64,000 nucleotides of DNA from Promethearchaeota archaeon (GTDB taxonomy: Archaea; Asgardarchaeota; Lokiarchaeia; Sigyniarchaeales; SOKP01), in NCBI GenBank assembly GCA_030603385.1, contig JAUVXW010000008.1, positions 32,001 through 96,000 on the forward strand, in the 5' to 3' direction. Below, in pieces: positions 29,814-48,014 of the stretch. The translations under genes were made by a program, and so were the position numbers. The notes beneath the pieces are model-generated. The model did no database searches. It saw only the letters and a list, made by a program, of their open reading frames with translations, and was not told the origin of the DNA. Every line of letters begins with the position of its first letter. The first letter of the stretch is position 1.

Positions 29814-29905
29814 AAACCCATTAATAAATTATTATTTTAATTTTAAATTCTTTAATTAACTCACTATAATTAAATTTGTTAAAAATTACTTTTGGGAGAT
29901 AAAAG

Positions 29906-30154
29906 ATGTCCTTTCTAAATAAAGAAATTGAAAGAGCTACATTTGGGATAATTGTTGGAAATCGTGATGTTTTTCCTGATCACCTTGCTACTGAAGGAAG
30001 AACCGCAATTACAGATGTTTTAAAGGAATTAAATTATGATTATGTTATCTTGAATAAAGAGGATACAAGAGATGGAGTTGTAGAAACCTATAACGATGCA
30101 AAGAAATGCGCCGAACTCTTTAAAAAAAATAGAGACAAAATTAAAGAGATTTAA
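29906..30154 (+). pseudogene. 5' fragment (copy 1) of the L-fucose/L-arabinose isomerase-family gene
   Basis: Gap-free alignment to aa 1-79 of 45784-47220 (51/79 identical by hand count), then a stop. Confidence 0.92.
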
Positions 30155-30180
30155 AAATAGTATATTAATAAATTAATTTT

Positions 30181-31800
30181 TTATTGCCAGAACTCTAAAT
30201 TTTTAAATTTAAGATTGAATTTATTTACTCTTTTCTCAAGGTAAAGCTTAAAGGAATTCTTCAAATCTACTTTATCTAAATTTGTATCTGGACTAATTTT
30301 AGTTATAATCTCTTCAAAAATATTTAAAGGATTTTCATTCCAATAAATAATTATTCTAAGAGGTTCAAAATGAATTTCATTAGAATGAATAAAATAGCAT
30401 TCTATGTCTAATAAATCTAAATCTTCTTCAAATTCTCTCAAAAGTTTTATATTTGGTAAGATTGAACGAGATCCTTCATATTTGTTTTCATCTTTGTTTA
30501 TATTATTGTAATAGAATTGTAGGATATTGTTTAGTGCATCAAAAATCTTCTGCTTGTATTTTTTATTTAAATGTTTCTTTAATTTTAGTTCTTTATCTAA
30601 TAATACTGTCTTATCCCGAATTTTTTGAAGTATTATTCGAAGCTTTTCATCATAAAGAGTCTTCTTACAAAATTCCTTTAAATGCGTTCTTCCTGTGATG
30701 CTCAAATAATTATTTATAATTGCAGTTGATGATTCTATTATATTTTGTTTCTTCTCTTTTTGAGAATATTCTACACCAACATGATAGTTATATAATTTTT
30801 CAGCAGCTTTTTTATTATATATTCTTTTTAAAATTACAATATCATAGGTACCAATCGAAAAATCATCAGTATTAAAAACATATTTTAATAGCCATTCATC
30901 CCATCTATCTATTTCATGTATAAAGACATAAAAAAAATCAATTTTTTCTTCTAAAGTTAGGAGGGATGAATCACGATTTAAATCAAATCTTTTAGATTTA
31001 TATACTTCTGTATTTATTCTCGATAATACTTCCATAACTAACTTCTCATTATTTTGATTTGGATCATGTCTTTCAATAATTGATTCACATGTTTCATAAA
31101 AAACCTCTAAAAATTTAAGATCAAATTCTCTATTATATAAATATAAATCTCTCAAATGTTTTTCGATAAAATGTTTAAAATTTTGTTTTGCTTTAAACCA
31201 TAGATTGTTTTTTAAAGAATCAATAAATTCTTTCACTGTTGCATCAGTTATCATTTTATTATCTTGTATGAACAATTTCATGAAATAAATCAATTTTAAT
31301 ACTAAATTCAACTCTCTATTATCATAAACAATCCATGCAATTAATAATCCAATAAATATCAAGAAAAATGTTATTATGAAAAATGAATTAGCTTCATTTA
31401 TGAATGATAATGAAATAAATAGCAATGTTAGTGTAAAAAGCACTTTTGAAAAAAATCTATCTTTTATACTTGAAATGAAAATATGGTCTATTCCGCTGTG
31501 TAATTTTACATTCTTATATTTTGGAAATTTTCCTTTACGGTTTTTAAGAATAATAATTAACTTAAAAATAAGAATCTCCCCCTTAAAATAATAGAGAAAT
31601 GCTGTTAAAATTGAAGAAACACTAAGTATGATAATATATAACTCATAACTTTCAAAAACATTTAAAAAATTACTCAAATTATTATCTGGATTAAGATTGA
31701 TGATAAAAAATACGATTGAAATTGAAAGGAAGAAATAAGCTCCTTTATAAGTGGTTTTATCTTGAGTATCTCTAAACTGACCCGTATAATAGGCTGTCAT
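30181..31800 (-). CDS. Hypothetical protein with 4 N-terminal TM helices and a large soluble helical domain
   Basis: 539-aa ORF, very AT-rich; no family recognised. Confidence 0.6.
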   Translation of the reverse strand: MTAYYTGQFRDTQDKTTYKGAYFFLSISIVFFIINLNPDNNLSNFLNVFESYELYIIILSVSSILTAFLYYFKGEILIFKLIIILKNRKGKFPKYKNVKLHSGIDHIFISSIKDRFFSKVLFTLTLLFISLSFINEANSFFIITFFLIFIGLLIAWIVYDNRELNLVLKLIYFMKLFIQDNKMITDATVKEFIDSLKNNLWFKAKQNFKHFIEKHLRDLYLYNREFDLKFLEVFYETCESIIERHDPNQNNEKLVMEVLSRINTEVYKSKRFDLNRDSSLLTLEEKIDFFYVFIHEIDRWDEWLLKYVFNTDDFSIGTYDIVILKRIYNKKAAEKLYNYHVGVEYSQKEKKQNIIESSTAIINNYLSITGRTHLKEFCKKTLYDEKLRIILQKIRDKTVLLDKELKLKKHLNKKYKQKIFDALNNILQFYYNNINKDENKYEGSRSILPNIKLLREFEEDLDLLDIECYFIHSNEIHFEPLRIIIYWNENPLNIFEEIITKISPDTNLDKVDLKNSFKLYLEKRVNKFNLKFKNLEFWQ

Positions 31801-32138
31801 ATATTTATACCTTTATCTAAATTCTTACAATTATTGATAAAATTCCAGTTTTTCGTAAATGCTATCTATATAAAAATAGAAAATTCAATATTAAAAAATT
31901 AAGTACTTTTACGATAATATAATAATAAAACCTTTGCTAAATTATCTGAGTATTCTGATTTTCAATATTTATTGATTTCTTGTCATCCTCATCATTTTTT
32001 TATATATCTAAATTTTTTGTAAAATAAATTGATATCTTACTAACGATAATTTAAAAAATAAATTTCTTGACTTTTATCCTCAATAAATAAAAGTTTTAAT
32101 ACAATTAGGGTTATATTTTTTATATTTATTCTATATTT

Positions 32139-32267
32139 TCATTTTTCTCCTTTATTCTTTGAATCTGTACTTTGTACTCTTGCTTTGAAACCTTGATTCT
32201 TTCCTGTTTTATCTGCATGAGATTGGATTCTTCGGGCAGCTTTTGAATTCATTTTTGTTTTACCCAA
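32139..32267 (-). CDS. 42-aa SMP-domain-like (seed maturation/LEA-type) microprotein, not in ORF track
   Basis: GGAGGTGA RBS 5 nt before TTG. MGKTKMNSKAARRIQSHADKTGKNQGFKARVQSTDSKNKGEK fits the A.RIQS.....G.....F.AR.QS...KN pattern. Confidence 0.72.
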   Translation of the reverse strand: MGKTKMNSKAARRIQSHADKTGKNQGFKARVQSTDSKNKGEK

Positions 32268-32808
32268 ATATTTCACCTCCTTTATTTATTTTAGGAATAT
32301 TAGAACATCATCCACTTTAAGACCATTCTTATTAATCCTTCCATTAAAGATCTCTAATCTTGTAAGTAATTTTAGAAATTGAATTGTACCAGAGATATTG
32401 ATTTATAATTTTATTGAATAATAGTAAATTATATAGTTTGAATCGAAAAATACGGAGATTTTTCTTCTTTGGGTGCACTCTAATGTGATCGAAATATGAA
32501 CGGTAATCTTCTTCGGAATACCACATAATTATTTAATTTCTTTTAACTATAATATTTTTTATTTAATGAACCTAAAATCATAATTAATATATAAATAATT
32601 TTTCCCCAAGTAATTCGGAGGTCACCACGGCGGGACATCAATTATCTGGGAAAATGGGGAAAAAGATATCTTTCTATTTTGCTTATTAAATGATTACAAT
32701 AGATATCTTGAATCTCCATTAAATAATAGCGAATTGGCATTGACAAAGATCTTTCTAATATCATAATATATCGATTATTTTTATGGGAATCCTTTATTAA
32801 AAATATTT

Positions 32809-33612
32809 TTAATGATACATTCTTACTTGAAGTATATAGAAAGAAACTAATGATTTGGTTAGAAATAGTTTTAACTCAACATAAAGCTCAGTAGATTCCC
32901 TCAATAAATCCAAACATGAATATTTTGAAAATCTTTTAAGAAATTTTGGATCTTCATGCTTAATATTATCTGCTATATTATATAAATAACCAAATAATCT
33001 ACTAAAATTTATTTCTACAGGATTATAAAATTCTTTCATGCTTGATTTGAGATCAGGTCGATATATTCTCTCTTTTAAATTATGATGTTGCCCTTTAAAT
33101 AACTTTAATAGCTTTTTTGTATAGTTTTCAAATATAGAACTCAAATAGAGAATAAATTCACTAAATATTATTAATCTTTTATCTTCGTTTTTCTTATACT
33201 TTAATAGTTGATTTTTAAAAATTGAAAATGTGAATATTAATTTCTTAGTATATAGCTTCTTAATTTCGTTTAAACCTGATAGTAATTTATTTACCCATTT
33301 TTTTGGTATGATTTCTTCTAATTTTTGAGAAAATTCAGCAAACAATGTAGTTATTGGTCTTAAAACCACATTAATATCAATTGAATTAACAATAATTTGA
33401 CTAAAATCAGTTAAAATTTGTCTAGATACTTCACTGAGACTTTGAGAAAAATTCTCAATAATGAGTTTTCGAGTATCTGACAGGCTTTTAAAGATTTTAA
33501 GATTATTTCTTCGTTCTTTAAGAGTACTAATTTTCTTTTCATTAAGTAACTTCTTAAAATCTTTTTTTGATATAACATTATTTTCGATTAAATCGCCATA
33601 TTTTATTGACAT
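32809..33612 (-). CDS. Hypothetical protein, possible degenerate HEPN-like C-terminus
   Basis: Helical; SIFE ... NIADNIKH resembles a HEPN-type E...R/Nx4-6H arrangement. Confidence 0.45.
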   Translation of the reverse strand: MSIKYGDLIENNVISKKDFKKLLNEKKISTLKERRNNLKIFKSLSDTRKLIIENFSQSLSEVSRQILTDFSQIIVNSIDINVVLRPITTLFAEFSQKLEEIIPKKWVNKLLSGLNEIKKLYTKKLIFTFSIFKNQLLKYKKNEDKRLIIFSEFILYLSSIFENYTKKLLKLFKGQHHNLKERIYRPDLKSSMKEFYNPVEINFSRLFGYLYNIADNIKHEDPKFLKRFSKYSCLDLLRESTELYVELKLFLTKSLVSFYILQVRMYH

Positions 33613-33804
33613 GTACTATTTTGTCACCTAATTACTATATATTTCTAATAAGGTTATTTCTTTCATTACAAGCAAAGGAAAACATGAACCAGTAGAAATA
33701 AAATTTCCTAAAATAAATTTAATTTTTATATTAGATTTTTAGAAAAAATAAATAATAAAAGGGTATTAAGTTTCATATCATAATCAATCTTATGGAATTT
33801 AAAG

Positions 33805-34089
33805 ATGTCATTTATTAAACCTAAAATGAGAGAAACTATTTTTGGAGTAATTATTGGTAATCGCGATGTTTCTCCAGATAATCTCGCAGAAGAAGGACGA
33901 AAAGAGATCATCAGTGTCTTAGAAAATTGGGGGTATAAATATATTATATTGAATGAAAATGATACTAAATTCGGTGTTGTGGAAACATATGAAGACGCGA
34001 AGAAATGTGCTGAATTATTTAAGGCAAATAGTGATAAGATAATGGGTACTTCAGTTATTTTACCCAATTTTAGGGATGAAAACAATTAG
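33805..34089 (+). pseudogene. 5' fragment (copy 2) of the L-fucose/L-arabinose isomerase-family gene
   Basis: Gap-free alignment to aa 1-92 of 45784-47220 (55/92 identical by hand count); ends just after NF.DE. Confidence 0.92.
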
Positions 34090-34353
34090 TAGGGTTTATC
34101 ATTTTTAAAGATAATAATTGAGCTATAAACAAGAAGCCTAATTGACATTGATGATCGTATAGAGTCTAAAATTAGCAAATATAAAATTTTGAAGCTCCCA
34201 ATAGCTTTAGAAAATCAAAAAATCCTTTGACCTCTTATAAATATTAAATACCTTTTTAATAACTAAATTAATATGAATGCATCACTTTTTCTCATTTGAA
34301 TTATAACATAAAATTTTCATTTCTGAATTATTTCATATGATTAAAGACAAAAA

Positions 34354-35784
34354 ATGACTGAAATTATTAAAAGTGGAGCAGGAATTCATGAAGGCTTCGA
34401 ATTTCAGTATTGGTATGGTGTGAAATTGATAATTGACTGGAAAATTTCACCACCAAAAGATTCAATAAACCCACCTTGGTTAAAAGAAGAGATTGGTAGA
34501 AATGAGTTTGGAATCTTTGATGATATTTTTATGTATAAAGATTCTGACTATTTTTTCTATCAAGCAAAAAAATCAGTTAGTACTAAGGGTGGGCTTATAG
34601 ATGAAAATGAATTATTAGATGATAAGTCTAGTCTATCGATTTTGGAAATGTATTTATCTTATAAGAAAATTAAGAAAAAATTTCCTGATGAAAATTTTTA
34701 TTTAATAAATGTATCAAATAAAGCAATTTCAGGAATATTAAGAGAAATAATTGTTCCTAATGAAAATAGAATAGAAGATTCATTTATTAAAAACAGCATT
34801 AAAAAAGATGAAAAAATTAAATTAAGAGAAGCAATTAAGGAAAAATGTGGTGGAAATGAGCTTAATGATTTTTTGAAAAGACTTCGATTTATCCATTTTG
34901 AAAATCCTGAATTTGAGGTAAAACATAAACCAATTCTCCCATTAAATATAATTCAAAACGTATTCAATTGGGTAAAGAAGATTGCACAAAAGAAATTCAC
35001 AAATTCAGAGAATAAAATTTCCTATGGAGATTTTCAATTTTTATTAAATATCAATGAATTAGAAGTACCTTTAAGATTAGGATTTTACTCAAAATCCGAA
35101 TTTCCATCAGAAATTTTATATGATTATTCAATCGACTTTTATTCCCAGATAGATGGAACCCTAAATGATATTGATTGGAATAAGTTCAGAGAAGAAATTG
35201 AGGATTTACGAAAAAAAATTATCAAAGAGAGTCAAAATCGTTTAATCCGAATTGAAGCATTATCTCATCTTACATTAGGATATATTATTGGATTTGTTTT
35301 TAGATCTACAACTGGCTTCAAATTGCAGGTTCTTCAACGATTTAAAGATCTTGAGGAAATTTGGGAATACGAATCAAATAATCGCTATAAAATTGAGAAA
35401 GATATTGATATTAGAGTAGAAATGTCAGATATTAATTCTAAAAATTTAATAATTTGTATGGAATTTACTGAAAAACCTATTAAGCATTTCATAAAAGAAT
35501 ATTTAACTAATTATAAAATAGATTATAATCAAATTATTGAAATTGTAACAAAACCCCCAATTAAAGTAAATCAAGTTACTCCTTTAATCAATTTCATAAT
35601 TGAATTGATTTTAAAGGTTAAAACAATTAAGAAAGTACATATTTTTAATGCAATTCCATTAGCGTTAGCAATTTTATTGGGATATAATTTCAATGCATTG
35701 CCAACTATTCAATTATATGAATTTGACATGGTAGAGAGAAAATATATTCCAAGTTATATATTAAAACAAAAATTAGGTAGGTGA
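34354..35784 (+). CDS. CBASS effector: Cap4-like endonuclease plus SAVED domain
   Basis: N-terminal GFEFQ...E...FDDI...YQAK (Cap4-type PD-(D/E)XK variant). C-terminal SAVED motifs HLTLGYIIG and VHIF.AIPLALAILLG...IQLYEF. Confidence 0.82.
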   Translation: MTEIIKSGAGIHEGFEFQYWYGVKLIIDWKISPPKDSINPPWLKEEIGRNEFGIFDDIFMYKDSDYFFYQAKKSVSTKGGLIDENELLDDKSSLSILEMYLSYKKIKKKFPDENFYLINVSNKAISGILREIIVPNENRIEDSFIKNSIKKDEKIKLREAIKEKCGGNELNDFLKRLRFIHFENPEFEVKHKPILPLNIIQNVFNWVKKIAQKKFTNSENKISYGDFQFLLNINELEVPLRLGFYSKSEFPSEILYDYSIDFYSQIDGTLNDIDWNKFREEIEDLRKKIIKESQNRLIRIEALSHLTLGYIIGFVFRSTTGFKLQVLQRFKDLEEIWEYESNNRYKIEKDIDIRVEMSDINSKNLIICMEFTEKPIKHFIKEYLTNYKIDYNQIIEIVTKPPIKVNQVTPLINFIIELILKVKTIKKVHIFNAIPLALAILLGYNFNALPTIQLYEFDMVERKYIPSYILKQKLGR

Positions 35785-35790
35785 AAAATT

Positions 35791-36780
35791 ATAGCAAATA
35801 CAGTAAGTCAAGCTTTTGATGAATTTAGGCAAAATTTAGAACCATTAAAGCCAGAAAAAGAGAAAATTCAAAAAAGACATAAATATATAAGAGAAACATT
35901 TAGCAACAAAATAAAGAATGATGGAAGAATGCATTCATTCTTATCTGGGTCATACTCTCGTAATACTCAAATAAGACCTATTAATGATGTGGATATAGTA
36001 ATATTGTTTGATATAGAGGAATATTGGGATCAATTTAAAAACAACCCACGTGAGATGCTCAATTTTACAGGAGAAAAATTAAAAGAAACTTATCCAGATA
36101 AAGATATAATAATTCAATCTCATTCTATTGGAATTAAATTCAAGGATCTTCCCGATGTAGATGTTATACCTGGATTTATTAAGGATTATAATAAGGAAAT
36201 CTATTTAATTCCAAATTTTAAACTAAATAATTTCATTGAGACATCCCCTACTAAACATAAAGCTATTATCTCTAGATATAACCAAAATTTAGGGGACAAA
36301 TTCATTCACATCATAAAAATGATGAAATGTTGGAGGAACAAATTAATAAAAGAAAGCATGAGTAAATCTGGGATTGAATTAAAATTCAAATCTTTTCATT
36401 TAGAAATCTTTTTGATGAATATTTTAAAAAGTAGATTTTCTAATTATGCTAAAGCTATTCAACAAGTTTTTTCAAAAGCTGCTGAAAATTTAGACTGCGA
36501 GTGCTATGATCCTGCAGGGTTAAGTGGAAGATTAGATGGTTATTTAACAGATATTCAAATTAAAACTTTAAAGAATATCTTTAGCAATACCAGTGAAGAT
36601 ATCAAGAGTTTACTACGATTAGAAATGGAAGGTAAATATCAAGAAGCAATAGAAGGTTGGAGAGATCTTTTTGGAGATCAATTTCCTAAACCTCTAAAAA
36701 CAAATAAAAATACATATAAAAAAAACCTAAAAACAAAATTTCCAATAGAAGGAAAGAATTATACATACGGTGAAGAATAA
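35791..36780 (+). CDS. CD-NTase (cGAS/DncV-like, SMODS) cyclic oligonucleotide synthase
   Basis: GSYSRNT, DVDIV, DVIPG, K.W, SFHLE, DPAG and W..LFG..FP motifs. The frame extends upstream of the track's Met to ATA at 35791 (TVSQAFDEFRQNLEP), behind an AGGTGA RBS. Confidence 0.92.
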   Translation: MANTVSQAFDEFRQNLEPLKPEKEKIQKRHKYIRETFSNKIKNDGRMHSFLSGSYSRNTQIRPINDVDIVILFDIEEYWDQFKNNPREMLNFTGEKLKETYPDKDIIIQSHSIGIKFKDLPDVDVIPGFIKDYNKEIYLIPNFKLNNFIETSPTKHKAIISRYNQNLGDKFIHIIKMMKCWRNKLIKESMSKSGIELKFKSFHLEIFLMNILKSRFSNYAKAIQQVFSKAAENLDCECYDPAGLSGRLDGYLTDIQIKTLKNIFSNTSEDIKSLLRLEMEGKYQEAIEGWRDLFGDQFPKPLKTNKNTYKKNLKTKFPIEGKNYTYGEE

Positions 36781-38625: not shown

Positions 38626-38738
38626 GATTTTCAACTCGGAGAAAACCTTTCTTTAATATACAATTTCGAATAAAATATAGAATAGTTAACTAATGAATAT
38701 TTCTTGCGATTTTTGAAATCAAACCTAAAGAAAATATT

Positions 38739-39212
38739 ATGAAAAATAAATATAAATTAGAAATTTCTAAATTTTTAGTTAATAAATTGTTAGATTTTTC
38801 ATCTAAAACTAATAATGAAGTCTGTGGAGTTCTAATTGGAAAAGAAATAAAATATAATCATATAATAATAACTGATGTAATTCTTGATAAGAATTCACTT
38901 AATGCTTCAAGATTTTCTGTAACTAGAAATACAAAAGGGCTATATCCAAATGTTAAAGAAATAGTTGAATATTCCGTTTATGATAATGTTGATTTTATTG
39001 GGGATTGGCATTCTCATCCTTACGGTTCTAGTTTATATAGTTCTATAGATTACTATTCTATGATTACCATGCTAAAAGATCCCGATTATTACTTTTTAAA
39101 TTCAATTGTTTTGATAATTGTATGTCCTCCAAATAAGATTAATAGTTTTCTGTTTCAAAGGGATAAAAAAAAGCCTCAAAAGATTGAAAATTATTCAAAA
39201 TCAATTAATTGA
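38739..39212 (+). CDS. cap3: CBASS Cap3-like JAB/JAMM metallo-isopeptidase
   Basis: EVCGVLIG and GDWHSHP......SSID (E...HxHx7SxxD). Confidence 0.9.
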   Translation: MKNKYKLEISKFLVNKLLDFSSKTNNEVCGVLIGKEIKYNHIIITDVILDKNSLNASRFSVTRNTKGLYPNVKEIVEYSVYDNVDFIGDWHSHPYGSSLYSSIDYYSMITMLKDPDYYFLNSIVLIIVCPPNKINSFLFQRDKKKPQKIENYSKSIN

Positions 39213-39383
39213 TTAAAAATTTCCTTGTAAAATACTCCTTAATTCTTTTTATACATTAGTTTAAAGTCGAAACTTTAATTCAATATTGTTCTTTAAATAT
39301 TGAAATACTCCTAAATATCTACCTTATTCCATGCTTTATAATATCAGTGTTTAGTAGATAAGAATTTCTTAATTGTAAGTAAT

Positions 39384-40442
39384 TCATGATTTAATATATT
39401 CGAATATTGTCTCTTTTTCTCCTTGATCATTTAAGACATAACCCTCTTCTAAAGCAATTAGCATTTCATCTAATAAGTGTAATTTACGAATCGTTTCTTG
39501 CTTTTGTAAACTAAAATTCTCATGGGCAAATGGATTTCTGATCCTTTTGAAACAACTTTTAAAATAGTTTTTATAATCTTTTTGCTTCTCTTTTCCCTCC
39601 ACTGTAGAAATATCATCCAAGAATATAACTGGACTATTTTCTGAGAATATCTGTTCAATTAATTGAACTCCAAAATTTCTTTTTAAGCCTTTTTTTTTAT
39701 TTACTTTCTTTAATATTTGCTCAATTTCATTATCAACTGCAGCAATTGATTTATCAAAAAAACCTTTTTTAAACAATCTATAAGCCTCATTAATTATTAT
39801 GTCATGAAAATAATTCCATGGATAATTTTTATTTGAAATTCTCCTGAATATTAATAATAGACAAAATAGAAATATCATAATGATAAAAGATAATAAATAC
39901 CAAAACCTCTCAAAAGTAATCAATTTATAAATAATATCAATATCTACATTGTTGTTATTTGGCTCAATAACAATGTATATAGGATCATTGAATAAATCTT
40001 TATAATCTAAAATTAATGAGAAAGACCCCAATAATTTATTATTTTGATGCGAAATGTAATTAATATCATCCAAATATCCATTTTGAGCTTTTATTTCTAA
40101 ATATTTTGTATATTGTGCTGAATTCAGGATGTAAACATCAATTATATTATCTCCCTTGTAAGATACGAATAATTCTGAATATGGGAGTATTACAGGATGA
40201 TTTATTCTAATTTCCTGAACAAAATAACTGTCATATCTTATGTCCTGATCATAAGATGAATCTTCTAATTTATAAATTGGAAGAGTAAAAATCGGTGTTA
40301 ACAACCATAAAAATATGTTTAAGAATAAACCTATAACTATTACTACAATAAATAAATTGTATAAATTATTATCTAAGTAATTATTTATTCTGGTTTTGAA
40401 TGGTAATTTAATATCCTCAGTTTTCTTTTTGGAATTCTTCAT
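39384..40442 (-). CDS. Membrane protein with extracellular domain and C-terminal TIGR02391 (HEPN-like) domain
   Basis: Two TM helices; G..LI...FS...P, E...Y..F and RIRNPFAH (Rx4H). Confidence 0.72.
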   Translation of the reverse strand: MKNSKKKTEDIKLPFKTRINNYLDNNLYNLFIVVIVIGLFLNIFLWLLTPIFTLPIYKLEDSSYDQDIRYDSYFVQEIRINHPVILPYSELFVSYKGDNIIDVYILNSAQYTKYLEIKAQNGYLDDINYISHQNNKLLGSFSLILDYKDLFNDPIYIVIEPNNNNVDIDIIYKLITFERFWYLLSFIIMIFLFCLLLIFRRISNKNYPWNYFHDIIINEAYRLFKKGFFDKSIAAVDNEIEQILKKVNKKKGLKRNFGVQLIEQIFSENSPVIFLDDISTVEGKEKQKDYKNYFKSCFKRIRNPFAHENFSLQKQETIRKLHLLDEMLIALEEGYVLNDQGEKETIFEYIKS

Positions 40443-40633
40443 TGTTTTTACGAATTTTTGTTGATTTCTATAAAATGTAAAATAGGAAGGATTTATTAAA
40501 TTTATTTACATTATTGATAAAAATTCATTAAAAGACTAAATAATATTTAAATATAAGATTAATTTATTTGAGTTCAAAGATCCTTGATTTACTGCATCTA
40601 TAGTTAGGTGAGTAAGACTAAAATATAATTGAT

Positions 40634-41410
40634 ATGTTTAAACCAAATAAAGATCGGACGTATCTGATAACATATATTGATATTCTTGGATTTGAAGCAT
40701 TCCTTGAAAATCATTCTTTATCAGAAGTTTATGATAAGATGTACAGTTTATTGAAAGCTTTAAAAAATACTAAAGTACAAGGTGTAGTTGAAATTAAATA
40801 TGATAAAAATGTATCTAAAGTCTTTCAAGATTATATAACAAACATTCCCTATTTTTTGTTTAGTGACTCTGTATTGATTTATAAAGAAATAGGGGAGGAT
40901 CACCAACCCAATCTTAGTCCCGAAGATACAGTATTTGGTGAAATGATCATGTCGTTAGAAGAAATCTTTAAGAGTGCATTTAAACAAAGAATTTTTATAA
41001 GAGGAGGACTAGCTTACGGAAAAGCGATAATTCAACCAGGTTCTCAAGGGATTAATAATATTTTAGTTGGCAAACCAATTATTAATGCTTATAAAACAGA
41101 AGAAGCTCAAAATTGGATGGGATGTGCTTTTCATGAATCTTGTAGAGATCTTATTGAAAATTCAATATACACAAAGGATTTTTTAGTACCATATCCCATC
41201 CCATTAAAAAATGAATGTCCGATTCTCAATTATGCATTGGGCTGGGTGGATAGTAGTATAAAAGATTTAAAATCTATGTTTGAAAATTGGGAAACATTTA
41301 AGCCCCACCATGAAGTTATTAAATCTAATACTATGGAGTTTTTTGAAGATAGTAAAGATAGAAGCCCCCGATGGTTAGGATTTGGAATTGATTTTCATAT
41401 GAATTTATAA
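40634..41410 (+). CDS. Class III nucleotidyl cyclase-like protein
   Basis: YIDILGF, FSDS, IRGGLAYG and G.PIINAY..E. Confidence 0.72.
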   Translation: MFKPNKDRTYLITYIDILGFEAFLENHSLSEVYDKMYSLLKALKNTKVQGVVEIKYDKNVSKVFQDYITNIPYFLFSDSVLIYKEIGEDHQPNLSPEDTVFGEMIMSLEEIFKSAFKQRIFIRGGLAYGKAIIQPGSQGINNILVGKPIINAYKTEEAQNWMGCAFHESCRDLIENSIYTKDFLVPYPIPLKNECPILNYALGWVDSSIKDLKSMFENWETFKPHHEVIKSNTMEFFEDSKDRSPRWLGFGIDFHMNL

Positions 41411-41923
41411 GAACACTGTGATTCCTTTAAAATTCTATATAAGGTCTCGATACTCATTTTAATTCAGAGATAGGAAAAATTAATCATTGTAAACCATCAA
41501 CCTTCTCCCTCAAACCATATAATATATTTATGCCCAGAACTTTCTTTAAATCTTTTTTTATTACATTTGCTAATTTTGTACTCACCTTTTCAACTTATTT
41601 TCTTACTTTTCTTACTTTCCTAATATATTTAAACTTAATTATAAAAATATAAGCAGACTTTTTATTCAACCATTATATTTATTTAAAACATATATTATAT
41701 CAGTTATATTTTAAAATATATAATAGCTACAGCTTATTACAGCAAGAATATTACTCAAAAAAGAGAAAAAAATGAAAATTTTAGCAGTCCATAGAACTAA
41801 TGGTAATACTAAATTTCTTAAAGTGTTTTTAAATCAAATTATGAGAGGTCAAACAAAATCTTCTTAATTAAAGGATTTTTTTAGTATTGTAAATGATATA
41901 TTTCTGGTGCATTTCATTATATA

Positions 41924-42478
41924 TTAAATAATAGGGCTGATAACATGAGTACAATTTGGATGTTGGGGTATTGTTTTTGCATAACGATTATAATTTTCGT
42001 TTTCATATATATCAATAAGCTTATTGTATAAAGGCTTCACTTTATGTTTTTTTCCTGCCATCTCCGTAGTACATAATGTATTATGATCTTCATACTGAGA
42101 ATGTGGAATAAAGCAATCCTCTTCTCCAGAATCATTTAAAATCTCCATAACTGCTTGATTATAAAATCTGCTTAATTGGATTCGTACCAAGCGTTCTGCC
42201 CAATCTCGAGTAAATACTCTACTATTATCTGCATATTTTGATGTATTTCTAGGTATTTTATTTTGAACTTGATGGTATGCTGTATTTAAATCAGGAATTT
42301 CTCCCATTATCAATTTTTGAAGAATCTTAATAAATTCCTTTTTTCTACTCTCCTCTTCGATTACTTTTCCTGCTGTTGGTCTAGTTTCGATTAATTTTAT
42401 TATTTTATTCTTTAGTTTATGATTTTTTGATAAAACATGTAATATTTCATAAAAGTTATTGGCATATAGCTCACTCAA
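41924..42478 (-). CDS. Hypothetical protein with a MuF/minor-capsid-like C-terminal motif
   Basis: AERLVR.Q..R.YN ... C ... IPQHPNCTH resembles the MuF P.HPNC.C/H motif. Confidence 0.5.
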   Translation of the reverse strand: MSELYANNFYEILHVLSKNHKLKNKIIKLIETRPTAGKVIEEESRKKEFIKILQKLIMGEIPDLNTAYHQVQNKIPRNTSKYADNSRVFTRDWAERLVRIQLSRFYNQAVMEILNDSGEEDCFIPHSQYEDHNTLCTTEMAGKKHKVKPLYNKLIDIYENENYNRYAKTIPQHPNCTHVISPII

Positions 42479-43172
42479 TTTAATTTACCGCCTACTATAT
42501 TTTATTATTTTTTCATTTTTAAATTAATATTTTCTATAATACTATTTTGAGATACTTAAGGTTTGTAGGTGGTATGGAAATTTAAATATATGTTGTATTT
42601 GGATAATAGCCTACTATTAATGGGAATCCCGACCTTAGGATCCTGAACTGCATGGTGATACCAGGTTTCGTATCGTCTTTATCCTGAAAAGATCGCTTTC
42701 CTCTCATATCACTTGAACTTATAATGTCGATCACATACAAAAATATACACCTCATTTCATTAATATTAGAGATCTTTACATTATAGGTTTTTTTTTTCAT
42801 ATTTAATTAAAAATAATAAAATCTCAAGATCTAAAATAGTTTATAGTAGTATAAAGTATTTTCAGCTTATAATTATTTACAAAATTTAAGGGAAGTTTAT
42901 AAAGAAAGAATTAAAGAAAAGATCTTTAAGTTATTTATAAAGGCAAAATTGTACGATGCAAAAAATGAAAGTATATAAACACATAATCATATATAATTGA
43001 ATAGATGTGGAATTAGCTAAATTTAAACATATAAAATTTATGTATATAATCATTAGATTATTAAAAATAGGTTTTCTTGATAAAAATGCAAAATATTTGA
43101 ATTTTTATAGGAGATTTTTTAAATTATATAAAAATTGATTAATATTCGTATATTTAAAACATTCTTAGACAA

Positions 43173-45689
43173 ATGAAAGATAAAAACATAGAAAAAGAAA
43201 ACAGTTATCAAGAAGGAAAAGAAAGATATTCAAATGGAAAGGCATTTCAAAATGAATTGCATATTAATGGGTATTATAATTGTGATAATCAAGAATTAGA
43301 CAATATGGATTTACAACATAATACCGATGAAATCCCTGTTTCCGGAGAAATATTTGATTATCTAAAATCTTGGGACAAAGAATTTAAAGACAATAATAAA
43401 AGCTATTGTGTTAAACAACAGGACAAATTAAATGAAAGTAATGATTATTATGAGAAGGATGTCTATAAAACAAGCCAATCATCGGAAAATAGTGAACCAA
43501 ATGTTTGTAATAAGTTGTTTAACACTGATTGTAAGGAAAATACTGATAATATTGTAAAAGAATCATTTGTAGTCTCGCTAAGTCTAAGAGATAAATTGTT
43601 TGAAGATTTCTTAGTCCAGAAAGAAGATATCGAAAAATGTAAGTATATCCCAAAATTTAGAGATTTCCAAAATATACCTAAATATGAAGGGCTTACCAAA
43701 AAATACTTTAGTCATGTTAGAAATGAATGGTTCAGGGAAATTCTGCATAAGGATAGCTTTATAGAATACCGAAATGAAATAATGTTAAAAAATTTTTTTC
43801 AAAATGATAAAAAGTTATTTAATTTAATCCAGAGTAATCAATATCCTGAAGGTGTTCTAATTTATAATCTTATTAAACATTTAGATTTATCGTTTCCAAA
43901 ATTAGAAAAAGCAATTTATGGAACTAATAACAATAATATAATAAGAGTATTACAAAATCTAGGTGTCTTTAAATGGGAAGGTTTAACCTCAAAAATTAAG
44001 AGTTTCATTTTATCAATAAAGGACATATCTTTAAAACAACAAGCTATAAAAGAGTTCCAGAAATACTTAAAAACTAAAGTTTATAATGGGTTTAAACGAA
44101 ATAATTTTCCAAGAATTGAAAAATTTACATTAAAAGATTATCCAGAAGGTTGGTTAATTTTGAAATTATGTGAAATCAGTTTAATTTCTGATACAAAATT
44201 AGGAAAATTGATTGATTATAGTGATTTACCTTATCACTTAACAGAATTAAGACGTTTCAAAGGAAATAGAATTGAGAGCATAAAGAATTTTATCTCTAAT
44301 ATCGATGATAAAGAAAAAAAAGAGAAATCTTTTGTAATTCTATCGAATTATATTAAGTTTATTGTATTTTCTCAACTTAATAGAGAGGGTGTAAAAGAAA
44401 TCGATGAATTTTTGGATATTAATCCAAAAAAATGGTTAATATATAATTTATGTGTTATTTATTTAATAGTAATTCGAGATTTTGGTAAAAAAATTGATTA
44501 TAAAGATATTATAACATCTGTTCACACACGATATGACTTTTCAGATATAATAATCAAAAGAATTCGCAACTTTATAAATAAAACAGATGATCTCCAGAAA
44601 AAAGAGATTGCGACGCAAGTTTTGAGTATATATTTGAAGAGAGCCATTTATAATAAATTAAAACAAATTGATTTACCTAATTACAAAAAATTCAAAAGTA
44701 AGATGCACCCTGCACTATGGTTAATAGTTCAGATTTGTTCGATTTATTTACTACATCCTTTTGAGTTAGAAAAGCTCATTAATTATAGTGAATTATCAAA
44801 ACGCTTGAAAGTTATATCGTATTTTACTAATACCACAATAACTAAACTTAGAAAGTTTATTAGGTATAGTGGGACATCGAAACAAAGACAAATAGCTAGA
44901 GATATAATAAATAGATTTCTTGAGGTTAGAAATGAAGAATTTCAAAGATATACTGGACCAAAGGTTCAGAATTTAAAAATGATAAATAATTATTCTGAAT
45001 TGGTCAATCATTTAGAATATGTATATAAATTAGGAACATTTCCTGAAGAAATTTTAGAAGGATATCATGAATATCCACGTATATCAAGATTTAACCAACA
45101 ATTTAGATTTATTTCCATTGAAAAGAAGAGAGTTTTTATTAAAAAAATGATTTCAGATGGATTAATCAAAAAAGTTGACAGCAACGATTCTAAAATTCAT
45201 AATTCAGTTTATAACTTAATAGAATTATCAAAAAATAAGTATTATAAACCTTCTGAGATTTATAATACACACAATAGCCCTGGTCATGAGTCTGTTTTAA
45301 ATAAAATATTAGAGGAAGATTCTAATTCCGTATGTCTGGAAATTCCTATTTGGATGTGGCATAAAGACCATTACTTGACAGGTCATATTGATTTAATCCT
45401 TGTCATGGATGATATCATATATATATGCGATTATAAACCGGAAGAGACTCCAATTCCCGAAACTACTCGATTATCATATTCATTCATGAGATCTATTCCA
45501 CAAGTGGCCTCATATGCATTAGTTTTAAAGAATTTATTTAACATTACTGATATAATGTGCATTACATTCAATAAAAGTGGAGCTTGGATATATGAACCAA
45601 AAACAACTTTAACACACTTAAACAATTTTATTAAAAAAAATAAACAATATAAAGCGAGTGATAGACCTTGGGAAAAGTATTTCCTATGA
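43173..45689 (+). CDS. PD-(D/E)XK nuclease with four internal ~95-aa helical repeats
   Basis: C-terminal H...EIPIW...GHIDLI...ICDYKP...QVASYA; repeats start near aa 224, 323, 417 and 512. Confidence 0.8.
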   Translation: MKDKNIEKENSYQEGKERYSNGKAFQNELHINGYYNCDNQELDNMDLQHNTDEIPVSGEIFDYLKSWDKEFKDNNKSYCVKQQDKLNESNDYYEKDVYKTSQSSENSEPNVCNKLFNTDCKENTDNIVKESFVVSLSLRDKLFEDFLVQKEDIEKCKYIPKFRDFQNIPKYEGLTKKYFSHVRNEWFREILHKDSFIEYRNEIMLKNFFQNDKKLFNLIQSNQYPEGVLIYNLIKHLDLSFPKLEKAIYGTNNNNIIRVLQNLGVFKWEGLTSKIKSFILSIKDISLKQQAIKEFQKYLKTKVYNGFKRNNFPRIEKFTLKDYPEGWLILKLCEISLISDTKLGKLIDYSDLPYHLTELRRFKGNRIESIKNFISNIDDKEKKEKSFVILSNYIKFIVFSQLNREGVKEIDEFLDINPKKWLIYNLCVIYLIVIRDFGKKIDYKDIITSVHTRYDFSDIIIKRIRNFINKTDDLQKKEIATQVLSIYLKRAIYNKLKQIDLPNYKKFKSKMHPALWLIVQICSIYLLHPFELEKLINYSELSKRLKVISYFTNTTITKLRKFIRYSGTSKQRQIARDIINRFLEVRNEEFQRYTGPKVQNLKMINNYSELVNHLEYVYKLGTFPEEILEGYHEYPRISRFNQQFRFISIEKKRVFIKKMISDGLIKKVDSNDSKIHNSVYNLIELSKNKYYKPSEIYNTHNSPGHESVLNKILEEDSNSVCLEIPIWMWHKDHYLTGHIDLILVMDDIIYICDYKPEETPIPETTRLSYSFMRSIPQVASYALVLKNLFNITDIMCITFNKSGAWIYEPKTTLTHLNNFIKKNKQYKASDRPWEKYFL

Positions 45690-45783
45690 TTATGAATTAA
45701 AATCTATTATTTTTTTAGAAAAAAATTAAAACAAGAAGAAAATTTACTTATTTAGTTAATTATTACCTTAAAAGGGATAAATA

Positions 45784-47220
45784 ATGTCATTTATACAGCA
45801 TAAAGAATTGAAATCATATTTTGGGATTATTTTAGGAAATAGAGACGTATTTCCAAATCATTTAGTAAAAGAAGGTAGAAAAGATATTATAGATGTAATG
45901 AATGAATTAGGATATCACTATGTTATTTTAGATGAGGAAGCCACACCACTGGGGGCAGTTGAGACGTACTCAGATGCTAAGAAATGTGCAGAACTTTTCA
46001 AAAAGAATTCTGATAAAATTTTGGGGATAATTTTATGTCTTTGCAATTTTGGTGACGAGAAAGCCGTAGCCAACACACTAAAACTTGCTGATCTCAATGT
46101 TCCTGTTTTAATTCAAGCATGTTCAGATGAGATTAGTAAGATGGATCGAGAACATCGAAGAGATGCGTTTTGTGGAAAAATTTCTGTTACAAGCGTATTA
46201 TATCAACATGGAATTCCATTTACTCTAACAAAATATCACACTTGCGCAATAAAATCGGATTTTTTCAAAGATGATCTTCACCGATTTGAAAAAATATGCA
46301 AGATTGTGAGCAAGCTTAGGAATGCGAGGTTGGGTCAAATTGGCACAAGACCCAATGCATTTGAGACTGTTAGATATAGTGAAAAAATTTTGGAATTTAA
46401 CGGGATAAGTGTAGAACCAATAGATCTATCAGAAATTTTTGGATTAATTGAAAAATTAAAGGATAATGATCCAAAAGTAAAAGATAAGATTGACATTATA
46501 AAGAATTATACCTCTACATCTTCATTTCCAGAAGATGGTATTCTTAAACTTGCAAAATTAGCTGTTGTTATTGAAAATTGGGTAAAAACAAATGACTTAG
46601 ATGGATTTGCTTTTCAGTGCTGGCCTTCAATACAAGATAACTTTGGGATCGTCCCATGTGCTGTCATGAGTATGTTTAGCGAAGGACTTATTCCAGCAGC
46701 GTGTGAAGTCGATATCTCGGGATTAATAAGTATGTTAATATTACAAATTGCTTCTGAAACGCCCTCAGCAATTTTAGACTGGAATAATAATTATGGAGAT
46801 GATCCTAATAAAATGGTTCTATTCCATTGCAGTAATTTACCAAAATCTTTTTTTCAAGATACGCGAATGACTATTCATCCCATAATTTCTGATCAAAAAG
46901 GTGGAGAGGTAAGTTTTGGAGCAATTCAAGGTCGTATTAAAACCAAACCTTGTACATTATTAAGGATTGAAACAGATGACTTATATGGTGATATTAAAGC
47001 CATCATAGCAGAAGGAAAATATACTGAGGATTCTCTAAACACTTTTGGAGGATACGGAGTAGTTGAGATTCTTAATTTACAATTCTTATTGAAATCTCTA
47101 TGTTTAGGAGGATTCGCTCATCATGTAGCATCAACTTTAAATGAAGTTGGTGATATTGTCTATGAAGCTATTTCAAAATATCTTAATTATAACGTAGAAT
47201 TTCATAATAAGAATATTTAA
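45784..47220 (+). CDS. L-fucose/L-arabinose isomerase family protein (intact copy)
   Basis: GNR..FP, NFGDE, RRDAFCGK, QCWP, ACEVD, LDWNN, FHCSN, TFGGYG and GFAHH motifs. Confidence 0.88.
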   Translation: MSFIQHKELKSYFGIILGNRDVFPNHLVKEGRKDIIDVMNELGYHYVILDEEATPLGAVETYSDAKKCAELFKKNSDKILGIILCLCNFGDEKAVANTLKLADLNVPVLIQACSDEISKMDREHRRDAFCGKISVTSVLYQHGIPFTLTKYHTCAIKSDFFKDDLHRFEKICKIVSKLRNARLGQIGTRPNAFETVRYSEKILEFNGISVEPIDLSEIFGLIEKLKDNDPKVKDKIDIIKNYTSTSSFPEDGILKLAKLAVVIENWVKTNDLDGFAFQCWPSIQDNFGIVPCAVMSMFSEGLIPAACEVDISGLISMLILQIASETPSAILDWNNNYGDDPNKMVLFHCSNLPKSFFQDTRMTIHPIISDQKGGEVSFGAIQGRIKTKPCTLLRIETDDLYGDIKAIIAEGKYTEDSLNTFGGYGVVEILNLQFLLKSLCLGGFAHHVASTLNEVGDIVYEAISKYLNYNVEFHNKNI

Positions 47221-47362
47221 ATCTTTTTTATTTCATTTTTCTTTTAAGAAATTACTTGACTAATTTGTATGCCTGTATTCAGATTATATATTTATATAGA
47301 AGTATATCTAAATACTTTTAATAGAATTTCAGAATCAGTAGAAATTCCAAATCTTTAACAAA

Positions 47363-47911
47363 ATGATTACAATGAGTGAAGTTATAATAACTCAAAAATT
47401 AACCTCAAAGAAATATGTTTCTTCAATTTGTTGTCTAAGTTTCATAATATTAGTATTCTACATAGGTTTAGGTGTATTCCCTAACGTCATTGAACCTGGT
47501 ATAGTAGCCGCTCTTGCTTCAACTCTCTTTATTTTAATTCTTGGAGGGGTAAGTATATTTTTTTTATTTTATCTTTTATGGAGATATCGTGGTACTGGTA
47601 AAGTAAGAACATTTTCTATTTCAGATGAATTAATAAAAATAATGGTTCCCAAAAAGCATAATTTTCAAATAAATTGGTCTAATTTTGATACTATTCAAAT
47701 GTATAAACATATTTCTAGATCACAACTTGCTAATTACAAGATCTATAAAATTAATTTCCTTTTAAATAATAATATAATTCAGGATGTTGATATTGAATTA
47801 TCAGTAGATTTTAGCAAAGGAAAATGTAAACAGATTAGATCTTTATTAAATCAATATGCTGTAAGAATGAATAAAGAATATTTCTGGGGTAAAAGAAGAA
47901 AAAAAAAATGA
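47363..47911 (+). CDS. Hypothetical membrane protein (2 TM)
   Basis: Two hydrophobic helices followed by a beta-rich soluble domain. Confidence 0.6.
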   Translation: MITMSEVIITQKLTSKKYVSSICCLSFIILVFYIGLGVFPNVIEPGIVAALASTLFILILGGVSIFFLFYLLWRYRGTGKVRTFSISDELIKIMVPKKHNFQINWSNFDTIQMYKHISRSQLANYKIYKINFLLNNNIIQDVDIELSVDFSKGKCKQIRSLLNQYAVRMNKEYFWGKRRKKK

Positions 47912-48014
47912 TTCTTGAAGATATTTTATATGAAGTATTAGTAACTAATTTAGGATGGAATGTTAGCGTACTTACAAAGTAAATTCAGGTTCTAATAAAT
48001 ACAAACCTAAAAAT

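Follow-up and report, generated by a model that had tools for sequence, protein, structure and literature searches.

In the Lokiarchaeal genome studied here (G000), the start of a sugar-isomerase gene harbours a 16-kb island with a CBASS defence system. A portable type A module is the current supplier of the start of that gene, here to about codon 104, and two upstream partial copies of the gene are leftover dead starts. The 5' part of this gene, a member of the fucose-isomerase family, is occupied by a hypervariable island. On balance, we think it somewhat more likely than not that the island entered through a break or by recombination, without an integrase of its own.

Three starts of one isomerase gene

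The window, meaning the whole 64,000-nt stretch of DNA that was analysed, contains three same-strand isomerase starts at the coordinates originally predicted. The gene and its left flank comprise the following features.

28551-29813, minus strand: GT87 glycosyltransferase gene (Pfam GT87), the conserved left flank of the hotspot
29906-30154, plus strand: fragment 1, the displaced native isomerase 5' end, with homology to codon 79; native promoter at 29814-29905
33736-34089, plus strand: fragment 2, a displaced type B 5' module consisting of a promoter region with TTTTTAGAAAAAA and then codons 1-92; coding from 33805
45784-47220, plus strand: intact isomerase gene, Fucose_iso_C family
46097-47220, plus strand: native remainder of the isomerase, with 97-100% DNA identity to the closest relative, G019, from nt 313; Fucose_iso_C (Pfam)

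The intact gene belongs to the L-fucose/L-arabinose isomerase family (Pfam Fucose_iso_C, 5.3e-20) and has a weak NCBIfam match to sulfoquinovose isomerase, far under the cut-off. Both partial copies align to it without gaps, at 63% identity for fragment 1 (aa 1-79; its ORF has 82 aa) and 60% for fragment 2 (aa 1-92), in agreement with the 60-65% given before. Fragment 1 adjoins the GT87 gene as the native gene does in empty-site relatives, which confirms its core context. The upstream sequence said to be shared by fragment 2 and the intact gene is the 13-mer TTTTTAGAAAAAA, located 69 and 72 nt before their ATGs; it has exactly two copies in the 64 kb (chance expectation 0.25), and two matches arose in 4 of 100 shuffles. 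Two odd substitutions in fragment 2, VSP and NFRDE, had been read as decay after truncation. Both are real and VSP is confined to the fragment, but NFRDE is in part a lineage trait, since functional type B relatives have NFSDE.

Three same-strand starts of one gene within 16 kb might also be eroded full paralogs, local tandem duplications or a chimeric assembly, of which the first and the last had been raised with the original prediction. We find all three very hard to credit. With the full isomerase as query, tblastn matched only three places in the window and in the genome as a whole, with no decayed 3' halves behind either fragment and no other paralogs, and fragments without 3' remnants argue against the paralog reading. 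The copies share 59-63% identity with the intact gene, and in the tree each falls in a separate lineage, which argues against duplication. As for assembly, the same architecture recurs in independent assemblies, namely G012, L067 with L068 (two sources) and L069 with L070 (two samples), and the junction between fragment 1 and the cargo is bridged by independent metagenome contigs.

Defence and other cargo

The segments between the three starts carry the cargo listed here.

30181-33612, minus strand: cargo block 1, with ORFs of 539 aa (30181-31800), 60 aa (32344-32526) and 267 aa (32809-33612)
34354-39212, plus strand: type II CBASS, with SAVED effector (34354-35784), CD-NTase (35791-36780), Cap2 E2/E1 (36781-38625) and Cap3 JAB (38739-39212)
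39384-42800, mixed strands: further cargo, with a Hypoth_Ymh/HEPN-like ORF (39384-40442, minus) and ORFs of 258 aa (40634-41410, plus), 184 aa (41924-42478, minus) and 72 aa (42582-42800, minus)

CD-NTase, Cap2 (E1/E2), Cap3 (JAB) and the SAVED effector lie in one operon (Pfam SMODS, ThiF, Prok-JAB and SAVED), which places the system in type II CBASS. PADLOC models match the cyclase (6.9e-56) and the effector (1.9e-26), and the cyclase gene has no ATG, GTG or TTG where its homologue starts. The same operon is found in the island of L071 at 70-75% identity. The ORF at 39384-40442 matches Pfam Hypoth_Ymh and the PADLOC models Aga_HEPN and PD-Lambda-3_B. Of the labels first attached to the intact cargo, CBASS, HEPN-like and nuclease stand, whereas 'cyclase-like' and 'MuF-like' found no support in Pfam, PHROGs, PADLOC or NCBIfam; the ORFs of 258, 184 and 72 aa matched no family in searches that included Pfam, PHROGs and NCBIfam. 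The cargo between fragments 1 and 2 had been called eroded, a description that is too simple for a block with intact ORFs of 539 and 267 aa. Its ORFs gave no family match in Pfam, PHROGs, PADLOC or NCBIfam, and an Atlas search returned no informative neighbour for the 539-aa ORF.

Across the genus, cargo at this position is highly variable and includes CBASS, reverse-transcriptase, AbiT, Fic and ATPase genes. The GT87 and isomerase genes are ~90 nt apart in ~24 same-genus genomes, which represent the empty site, and among relatives the gap ranges from 93 nt to 16 kb and is filled with unrelated cargo. Fragments recur in relatives, mostly ending at or before the NFGDE(K) codons. With recurrent fragments, empty sites and widely differing cargo, the locus is an insertion hotspot, as proposed.

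The working gene is a chimera

Compared with G019, the intact isomerase is 63% identical over aa 1-92 and 98% identical over aa 93-478; their DNA is 60-64% identical up to nt 261 and ~100% identical from nt 313. Fragment 1 is 92% identical to the N-terminus of G019. The 120 nt upstream of fragment 1 are 98% identical to L088, with similar identity to G019, and the GT87 gene is 97.6% identical to its G019 ortholog. Since fragment 1 matches the N-terminus of G019 and the intact gene matches G019 past aa 93, the working gene is a chimera, as had been suggested.

Separate trees of the two gene parts agree with these identities. Fragment 1 groups with G019/L146 in the N-terminal tree, where other displaced fragments likewise join the native N-termini of their own relatives (G012 with G033/G030, G020 with G015), and the C-terminal tree unites G000, G019 and L088 (100/100). 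It is therefore fragment 1, not the current 5' end, that is congruent with the 3' portion, which is the outcome the original prediction had anticipated. Empty relatives, a chimeric gene and a displaced native 5' end together amount to restoration of the gene at its 5' end, a feature of SXT/prfC and dusA-type elements. Empty (G019-type) and occupied alleles occur together in one sediment run.

Portable modules supply the gene start

The type A module consists of a promoter and isomerase codons 1-94. Its right end in the window is as follows.

45519-46096, plus strand: right end of type A, with the last ~170 nt of the nuclease gene o838, a promoter of ~100 nt and isomerase codons 1-94; here ~30 nt of extra donor-type sequence continue to nt ~313

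This module is present in 11 of the 54 genus genomes and in ~16 metagenome contigs. Its DNA is 85-97% identical across carriers, while the same genes downstream reach just 70-89%. In the N-terminal tree, the carriers fall into a single clade (100/100); the C-terminal tree spreads them across five or more supported clades. The module is mobile among species of the genus.

Fragment 2 had been attributed to another donor, and it is indeed the 5' end of a different module family, type B, which is functional elsewhere. In the N-terminal tree it clusters (99/98) with L069 and L071, whose type B N-termini are functional; it has 76% aa identity to L069, with homology stopping at codon 92. At least three module families compete for the site; compared with native sequence at codons 86-95, type A has CLC..A, type B NFS/NFR and the third type NFA. 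Two elements were originally thought to have inserted in turn in this lineage, but the stacked block could have arrived in one piece. An island variant without the o267 plus fragment 2 segment is found in metagenome contigs.

Junctions cluster in a short zone

A breakpoint at codons 80-92 had been predicted; the gene-side boundary falls instead in a zone at nt 282-330 (codons 94-110). The right switch point depends on the carrier, at nt <=282 in L067 and G068, ~292 in G012 and G063 and ~313 in G000, and type B switches at about nt 300-330. The patch at nt 291-312 of G000 is of donor type, matching L067, G013 and L118 and not G019. In every carrier tested, the donor tract in the gene body extends 0-30 nt beyond nt 282. 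The differences among right switch points could in part be polymorphism within the module pool, not different crossovers.

Left junctions lie at codons 94, 92, 90, 90, 83, 79, 72, 69, 55, 48 and 0, and in many islands without a fragment the left junction is in the native intergenic region. Four of them are grouped in a 12-nt stretch (codons 90-94), and the right boundaries span ~50 nt. Most of the genomes are MAGs, and some junctions are at contig ends. No conserved left arm follows the left junctions, the sequences in G020, G000 fragment 2, G012 and L130 being unrelated, and the two junctions have no identical att core but only AATTTTGG(.GA.GA.AA) in common. One junction class, that of G010 and G071, ends at codon ~155, beyond the zone, and needs a separate event.

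We then propose a model in which a break or recombination event would be confined to a short conserved zone of the isomerase gene, nt ~262-330 (NFGDEK to NVPVLI codons). The broken end of the recipient would invade a donor copy and copy the module and cargo leftwards. Recipient sequence is kept nearly to the break, with the short donor tract given above, as expected for broken-end invasion. On the other side, homology with the upstream GT87/intergenic region would leave no fragment, or else end joining to a slightly nibbled native 5' end would leave a fragment ending at one of the codons listed (94, 92, 90, 90, 83, 79 etc.). Ragged left junctions, an inexact right boundary and the lack of a visible integrase together make break-and-copy or anchored recombination more plausible than the action of a site-specific recombinase, although a recombinase followed by small deletions could also give clustered junctions.

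Search for a recombinase or a free form

Pfam was run on window island ORFs of at least 50 aa and on ten recurrent or long cargo clusters from 72 island regions, and precomputed Pfam annotation was used for L067-L071 (three contexts). No tyrosine or serine recombinase was found in the window, the three homologue contexts or the ten cargo clusters, and with no integrase or transposase seen in ~70 islands the claim of no recognisable integrase holds. The genome has five tyrosine recombinases, all encoded on other contigs. The junction core has no second copy in the genome, and the module has no relative among the viral contigs of IMG/VR. The metagenome comparison used assembled contigs only, with <=26% of sampled words in any one run, so that stretches without coverage carry no information.

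These results bear on a classical site-specific integrative element of the kind represented by SXT in prfC and by dusA islands. A recombinase of the tyrosine or serine type, which has since been lost or works in trans, would join a module-side attP to an attB around AATTTTGG..GA.GA.AA.G, and the left fragments would be eroded by later deletions. Restoration of a 5' end has its precedent in SXT/prfC and dusA islands (PMC8409611), the cluster at codons 90-94 comprises four independent cases, two module families use the same zone, and the genome does encode tyrosine recombinases elsewhere. We nevertheless regard this explanation as unlikely. The recombinase is unseen even in islands 16-18 kb long, and nothing conserved follows the left junctions. 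The right switch point varies by carrier and G000 has ~30 nt of donor gene sequence past the module; module and native targets disagree at 4 of the 12 bases beside AATTTTGG; and the core is single-copy in the genome and has no match in viral contigs.

A candidate nuclease and a conserved non-coding block

Towards the right end of the island lie two further features.

42833-43077, plus strand: conserved non-coding block upstream of the nuclease gene, beginning with a 12-bp hairpin-forming inverted repeat
43173-45689, plus strand: o838, 838 aa; the N-terminus is disordered, and four helical, XRE-HTH-like repeats of ~95 aa each are followed by a RecB/Cas4-like PD-(D/E)XK nuclease at the C-terminus

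The o838 protein has weak PDDEXK_1 and phage exonuclease matches and the nuclease motifs GHIDL / DYK / Q..SYA. Its AlphaFold model has a pLDDT of 80-95 across the repeats, and fold matches are to Cas4/MGME1/AddB (Z 5.5-7.7) and XRE/Cro HTH (Z 5.5-6.5); Foldseek with the whole model gave no match at E <= 0.001. A model of two repeats folded alone (pLDDT 46) was set aside. Full-length homologues and remnants were seen only at the hotspot, in the contexts of 5 of the 11 database homologues, and in 9 of 14 loci the gene precedes the module by 95-135 nt. A paralog of o838 exists on C36, with no duplicated gene ends near it. The only candidate break-maker encoded on site is o838, and we think it less likely than not that it has this role.

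Type A and type B islands share 78-84% identity in the non-coding block, compared with just 59-65% for their nuclease proteins, and G010 and G071 keep the block and lack the nuclease gene. Rfam, searched to E = 1, gave no known RNA in the island or the block, and the block has no convincing covariation and a weak consensus fold, in an analysis with one input sequence at wrong coordinates. The idea that the block is exclusive to the hotspot was ruled out by weaker copies elsewhere in other genomes.

A bolder proposal, which we consider doubtful, is that o838 is the founder of a new family of free-standing homing nucleases that combine four XRE-type HTH repeats with a RecB/Cas4-like nuclease. 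Such an enzyme would cleave the native isomerase gene near codon 94. During repair, the broken gene would receive copies of the nuclease gene, of a cut-resistant 5' module and of kilobases of defence cargo. If so, this would be an integrase-free, homing-driven Asgard defence island with a full cycle of invasion, nuclease decay and precise loss.

Island loss and related replacements

Mosaic 'scar' alleles are present in 3-4 empty-site genomes, with crossovers at about codon 27 in G063, ~16 in L088, ~65-70 in G001 and possibly ~88 in G019. Such alleles at empty sites point to loss of islands by homologous recombination between a leftover fragment and the module.

Short conserved patches thus do recombine, as would be needed if islands entered by ordinary homologous exchange through flanking core genes, or by homology-facilitated illegitimate recombination of random linear DNA. 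Neither would require a specific site or break, and the sharp boundary would be the start of conservation. The many fragment-free islands whose left junction lies within native intergenic sequence fit this explanation, as do similar terminal-fragment duplications at the 3' side of the gene and at other loci in the genome. However, random donor ends should give long and variable donor tracts in the gene body, not tracts of 0-30 nt, and the module is always complete to codon 94 in island-bearing genes. We therefore judge such exchange to be quite improbable. Because modules are always complete while deletion scars occur at all four patches, integration is not simply homologous deletion run backwards.

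L146 carries a mirror-image 3' replacement: its gene is 98-100% identical to G019 to nt ~720 and foreign after it, with the native 3' fragment 3.6 kb downstream. Displaced terminal gene fragments occur at eight or more other loci in the genome. Candidate locus C40 was uninformative, as it belongs to a multi-paralog domain family. Candidate locus C25 has orthologs, and its polarity, that is, which copy is native, is ambiguous. The window holds one further insertion.

47250-48009, plus strand: second small insertion, between the isomerase gene and a DNA methylase gene, with a 182-aa membrane-protein ORF at 47363-47911

It is missing in G019, where the two genes are ~10 nt apart, and distant homologues of the 182-aa ORF are at the same position in L094 and L138.

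Discussion

To our knowledge, almost nothing is known about gene gain and loss in Asgard archaea, and Asgard gene flow bears on models of the origin of eukaryotes. Neither this locus nor any integrase-free, gene-restoring Asgard island turned up in literature searches, consistent with the view that the target gene is undescribed as an Asgard island hotspot. The locus is a repeatedly sampled natural experiment, with mobile gene starts, stacked dead starts that record earlier states and scars that record losses. If insertion is break-driven, possibly by a resident nuclease, it would represent a mode of defence-island mobility undescribed in archaea. Chimeric core genes of this sort can also mislead single-gene phylogenies and MAG binning.

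The Prochlorococcus genomic islands and tycheposons grow by tandem accretion, with repeated partial att/tRNA fragments and integrases. Similarly, serial insertions at the isomerase locus leave partial target copies that bound cargo blocks, and cargo varies among close relatives. Tycheposon-type hotspots, however, have integrases and short, near-identical tRNA or gene-end repeats, whereas the isomerase locus has long, diverged coding 5' ends and no integrase was found.

SegF is a free-standing homing endonuclease of T-even phages that acts in intronless homing. MobE is another such enzyme (PMC2790892). The isomerase locus is compatible with such homing, though not diagnostic of it: an optional gene for a putative nuclease lies beside a gene with a diverged replacement piece, and donor tracts are short. 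Intronless homing leads one to expect cuttable nuclease-free alleles, a resistant copied piece, nuclease remnants and precise losses. Unlike SegF and MobE, o838 belongs to no known homing-endonuclease family beyond its PD-(D/E)XK fold; moreover, kilobases of cargo with defence and metabolic functions accompany the nuclease gene, the displaced gene end often persists, and the host is a cellular archaeon, not a phage.

SXT/prfC and dusA islands (e.g. IMEVchUSA3) insert in the 5' part of their target and supply a new promoter and N-terminal coding sequence, so that the gene stays functional (PMC8409611). The isomerase island resembles them in its position in the 5' part of a conserved gene, in restoring the start and in leaving the old 5' end behind. 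Those elements have a tyrosine integrase (plus an RDF), defined att cores and circular excision, whereas no recombinase was found for the isomerase islands and their junctions are ragged. The isomerase module is also long, with 94 codons at 60-65% aa identity to native sequence, and at least three families exist for one site.

Defence-island hotspots in the E. coli pan-genome lie between core genes, often without visible mobility genes (PMC10121019). The isomerase locus likewise has a variable, defence-bearing island at a fixed spot between conserved genes. In E. coli hotspots the flanking genes are intact and unduplicated, whereas the isomerase island carries and replaces part of a flanking gene.

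A chimeric isomerase gene beside a variable island

ORF listing and alignments bore out the original prediction that the window carries three same-strand starts of one isomerase gene.

29906-30154, same strand as the intact gene: fragment 1, a displaced dead start with homology up to codon 79, 63% identical to the intact gene, ungapped
33805-34089, same strand as the intact gene: fragment 2, a displaced dead start with homology up to codon 92, 60% identical to the intact gene, ungapped
45784-47220, same strand as both fragments: intact isomerase gene, 478 aa, Fucose_iso_C domain

A tblastn search with the full protein matched just these three places in the window and the 3.9-Mb genome; thus, in line with the prediction, no decayed 3' halves follow the fragments, and no further paralog was found there. 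The 13-mer reported ~70 nt upstream of fragment 2 and the intact gene is present at those two sites only within the window.

The island is flanked on the left by a GT87 glycosyltransferase gene. The cargo between fragments 1 and 2 had been called eroded, but its 539-aa and 267-aa ORFs, which have no detectable family, are intact. The stretch from fragment 2 to the intact gene holds a type II CBASS system (SAVED effector, CD-NTase, Cap2 and Cap3), a Hypoth_Ymh/HEPN-like protein, three family-less ORFs, a conserved non-coding block and o838, an 838-aa protein with HTH repeats and a RecB/Cas4-like nuclease. The CBASS cyclase (35776-35940 region) aligns from residue 1 with its homologue on metagenome contig L071 (75% identity), and has an ATA/ATT codon where the homologue has ATG; upstream there is no ATG, GTG or TTG before an in-frame TGA. 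Either the start is non-canonical or the gene has taken a first step of decay.

The GT87 and isomerase genes are ~90 nt apart in ~24 same-genus genomes, where a DNA methylase gene follows directly. One such empty site is that of G019, the closest relative, whose flanking genes are 97.6% identical to those of the window. The isomerase is 98% identical to that of G019 over aa 93-478 and only 63% over aa 1-92; the DNA identity is 60-64% as far as nt 261, and from nt 313 it is about 100%. As predicted, this contrast shows that the working gene is a chimera. Fragment 1, not the current 5' end, is congruent with the 3' portion of the gene, being 92% identical to the G019 N-terminus, and is the ancestral start.

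Portable 5' modules and their boundaries

The current start of the window's gene, called type A, is found in intact genes of 11 of the 54 genus genomes and in ~16 metagenome contigs, and takes in ~100 nt upstream of the gene. Among its carriers, the DNA identity is 85-97% in the module and 70-89% in the following 450 nt of the same genes. Type A carriers form a single clade in the codon 1-94 tree (100/100) and are scattered over at least five supported clades in the codon 95-478 tree. The displaced fragments cluster with native N-termini of relatives: that of G012 with G033/G030, that of G020 with G015, and fragment 1 of the window's genome (G000) with G019/L146 in the codon 1-94 tree. The G010 fragment resembles the G023 N-terminus by eye, a likeness that the tree does not resolve. 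Fragment 2 clusters (99/98) with a second module family, type B, which serves contigs L069 and L071 as the working start, and a third module type is present in G071 as a pseudogene. Together, the trees and identities show that the current 5' end is a portable module.

Upstream 5' fragments recur in relatives, as anticipated. The left junctions end at codon 94 (G020), 92 (fragment 2), 90 (G012 and L130), about 83 (L069), 79 (fragment 1), 72 (G010), 69 (L073), 55 (L067) and 48 (G065). Several genomes, including G005, G031 and G068, have islands without any fragment, and one junction class falls outside this pattern, with its end near codon 155 in both G010 and G071. No shared sequence was found after the left junctions, where the following DNA is unrelated between cases.

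On the right, L067/G068 lose type A similarity by nt 282, G012/G063 at ~nt 292 and G000 at ~nt 313. Nucleotides 291-312 of G000 match the L067/G013/L118 lineage and not G019, so ~30 nt of donor isomerase sequence arrived with the module. Type B modules end at about nt 300-330. Instead of a single fixed bond, both module families thus have the same narrow zone as their right boundary. The breakpoint is therefore not at the predicted codons 80-92; on the gene side it is a zone at nt 282-330.

Cargo variation, polymorphism and island loss

The GT87-isomerase gap can be as short as 93 nt and as long as 16 kb, and the cargo varies between relatives as predicted. The families that could be assigned to cargo clusters are alpha/beta hydrolase, radical SAM, glycosyltransferase, methyltransferase, NosD-type beta-helix protein, AbiTii, Fic, aldo-keto reductase, CBASS, reverse transcriptase with RNase T and AAA_15 ATPase, with no recombinase among them. 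At this hotspot in L069 (1504-3657), a 717-aa fusion of a reverse transcriptase with an RNase T-like exonuclease adjoins a zinc-ribbon ORF and an o838 homologue, and is probably a defence-associated reverse transcriptase.

Contigs of four sediment runs were compared, and no single run contained the whole stretch. The empty site was present as an uninterrupted G019-type allele, which joins 30141 to 46045 through the 25 native bases, and contigs of the same study bridge the junction between fragment 1 and the cargo. One further variant lacks 31904-34205 (the 267-aa ORF and fragment 2), and another lacks 41407-45485 and keeps no more than the last ~200 nt of o838; a similar remnant is also kept in G012, G068 and L079. 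These variants show that the island is polymorphic in nature.

Four empty-site genomes have mosaic starts that begin as native sequence and continue as type A. In L088, which is closely related to G000, the native promoter and codons 1-15 are followed by type A. The switch lies near codon 27 in G063, whose close relative G012 is a carrier, and near codons 65-70 in G001; G019 is a possible case (near codon 88), being type A-like at nt 262-290 only. All switches fall within the conserved patches FGII, GNRDVFP, DAKKCAELF and NFGDE. Such starts are the products expected if a fragment recombined with the module and deleted the island, and we infer that they are scars of island loss, possibly so in G019. 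They would confound single-gene trees. In every gene still bearing an island the module is complete to codon 94, so insertion is not just the deletion reaction reversed.

The o838 nuclease and a conserved non-coding block

A database search for o838 returned eleven homologues, all on Lokiarchaeal-type contigs (contexts checked for three), and additional copies were seen in isomerase loci. Wherever the context was checked, the full-length copy or remnant sits in this island, 95-135 nt upstream of the module in 9 of 14 cases. Identity to o838 follows the type of module, at 80-82% where it is type A and 59-65% where it is type B. The gene is missing almost exactly from G010 and G071, from 95 nt upstream of the ATG through the stop, as if it were a discrete cassette. 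In the predicted model (pLDDT 80-95 over the repeats), the repeats match XRE/Cro HTH domains and aa 625-836 match Cas4/MGME1/AddB nucleases, all with modest Z-scores. Nearly every genus genome has a ~245-aa homologue of the nuclease domain alone (e.g. G013:C49:33975-34589), so o838 looks like a fusion built on a widespread standalone-type domain. The domain is also C-terminal in other 800-1400-aa proteins of genus genomes; in G000 the one form found apart from o838 is a large fusion (C36:137558-139882), near which there are no duplicated gene ends.

Upstream of o838, a non-coding block (42833-43077, ~230 nt) is 78-84% identical between islands, more conserved than the o838 proteins of the same islands (59-65%), and is kept where o838 is absent. 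It opens with a perfect 12-bp inverted repeat, AAAATAGTTTATA..TATAAAGTATTTT, and has no Rfam match; weaker copies occur elsewhere in other genomes. The block could be an operator for the HTH repeats.

Possible mechanism of insertion

As the prediction stated, integrase, transposase and serine recombinase are all absent from the window, and the five tyrosine recombinases of the genome are on other contigs. A cis-encoded integrase is effectively ruled out by scans of the window, three homologue contexts and ten cargo clusters. A recombinase supplied in trans would explain why junctions cluster, but not why the left arm is missing, why switch points vary or why G000 has a donor tract. Plain exchange via flanking homology predicts long variable donor tracts, whereas none are seen.

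We lean slightly towards insertion by a break-and-copy class of mechanism. Following a break within nt ~262-330 of the isomerase gene, the right end of the recipient would invade the donor and copy leftwards, after which the left side would close by homology or end joining. Break-and-copy would explain why tracts are short, why fragments are ragged and end at codon 94 or lower, why some islands have no fragment and why no integrase is present. As the break-maker, o838 is a tentative and rather doubtful candidate.

Mirror-image 3' replacements of the isomerase gene occur in L146, L092, L137 and L096. At least eight other G000 loci have a same-strand terminal fragment of a gene (52-85% identical), with 0.6-14 kb of inserted genes between it and the intact copy. 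Among these genes are an RHH-type toxin-antitoxin-like pair, a 1138-aa secreted protein and several methyltransferases; the loci have no integrase close by.

Other displaced-fragment loci in G000 (contig:positions)
C20:18288-23480
C25:10132-12274
C26:102292-106152
C34:131907-133604
C38:68098-70263
C5:1944-17258
C12:38190-40100
C13:5163-7627

Together with the 3' replacements, these loci suggest that the mechanism is in part a general one, not tied to the isomerase site. The eight loci also hint that gaining cassettes along with a replaced gene end may be a general process.

The isomerase-methylase junction (47250-48009) is a second hotspot. A 760-nt insert that encodes a 182-aa membrane ORF is present here in G000 and absent from G019. 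Several metagenome contigs have here a foreign isomerase 3' half, cargo and then the native 3' fragment, displaced; L146 switches at nt ~720-780, and its 3' fragment begins at nt 859 and is 97.7% identical to G019.

Comparison with known systems

The isomerase hotspot is real, recurrent and well delimited, and its insertion mechanism is testable. Literature searches turned up neither the locus nor islands of this kind in Asgard archaea. The SXT/prfC and dusA islands are known to insert at the 5' end of a gene and restore it (PMC8409611). Those islands are defined by an integrase and att cores, neither of which was found in the window island. Stacked partial target copies are known at bacterial island hotspots, and short-tract co-conversion beside a free-standing nuclease is known in T-even phages.
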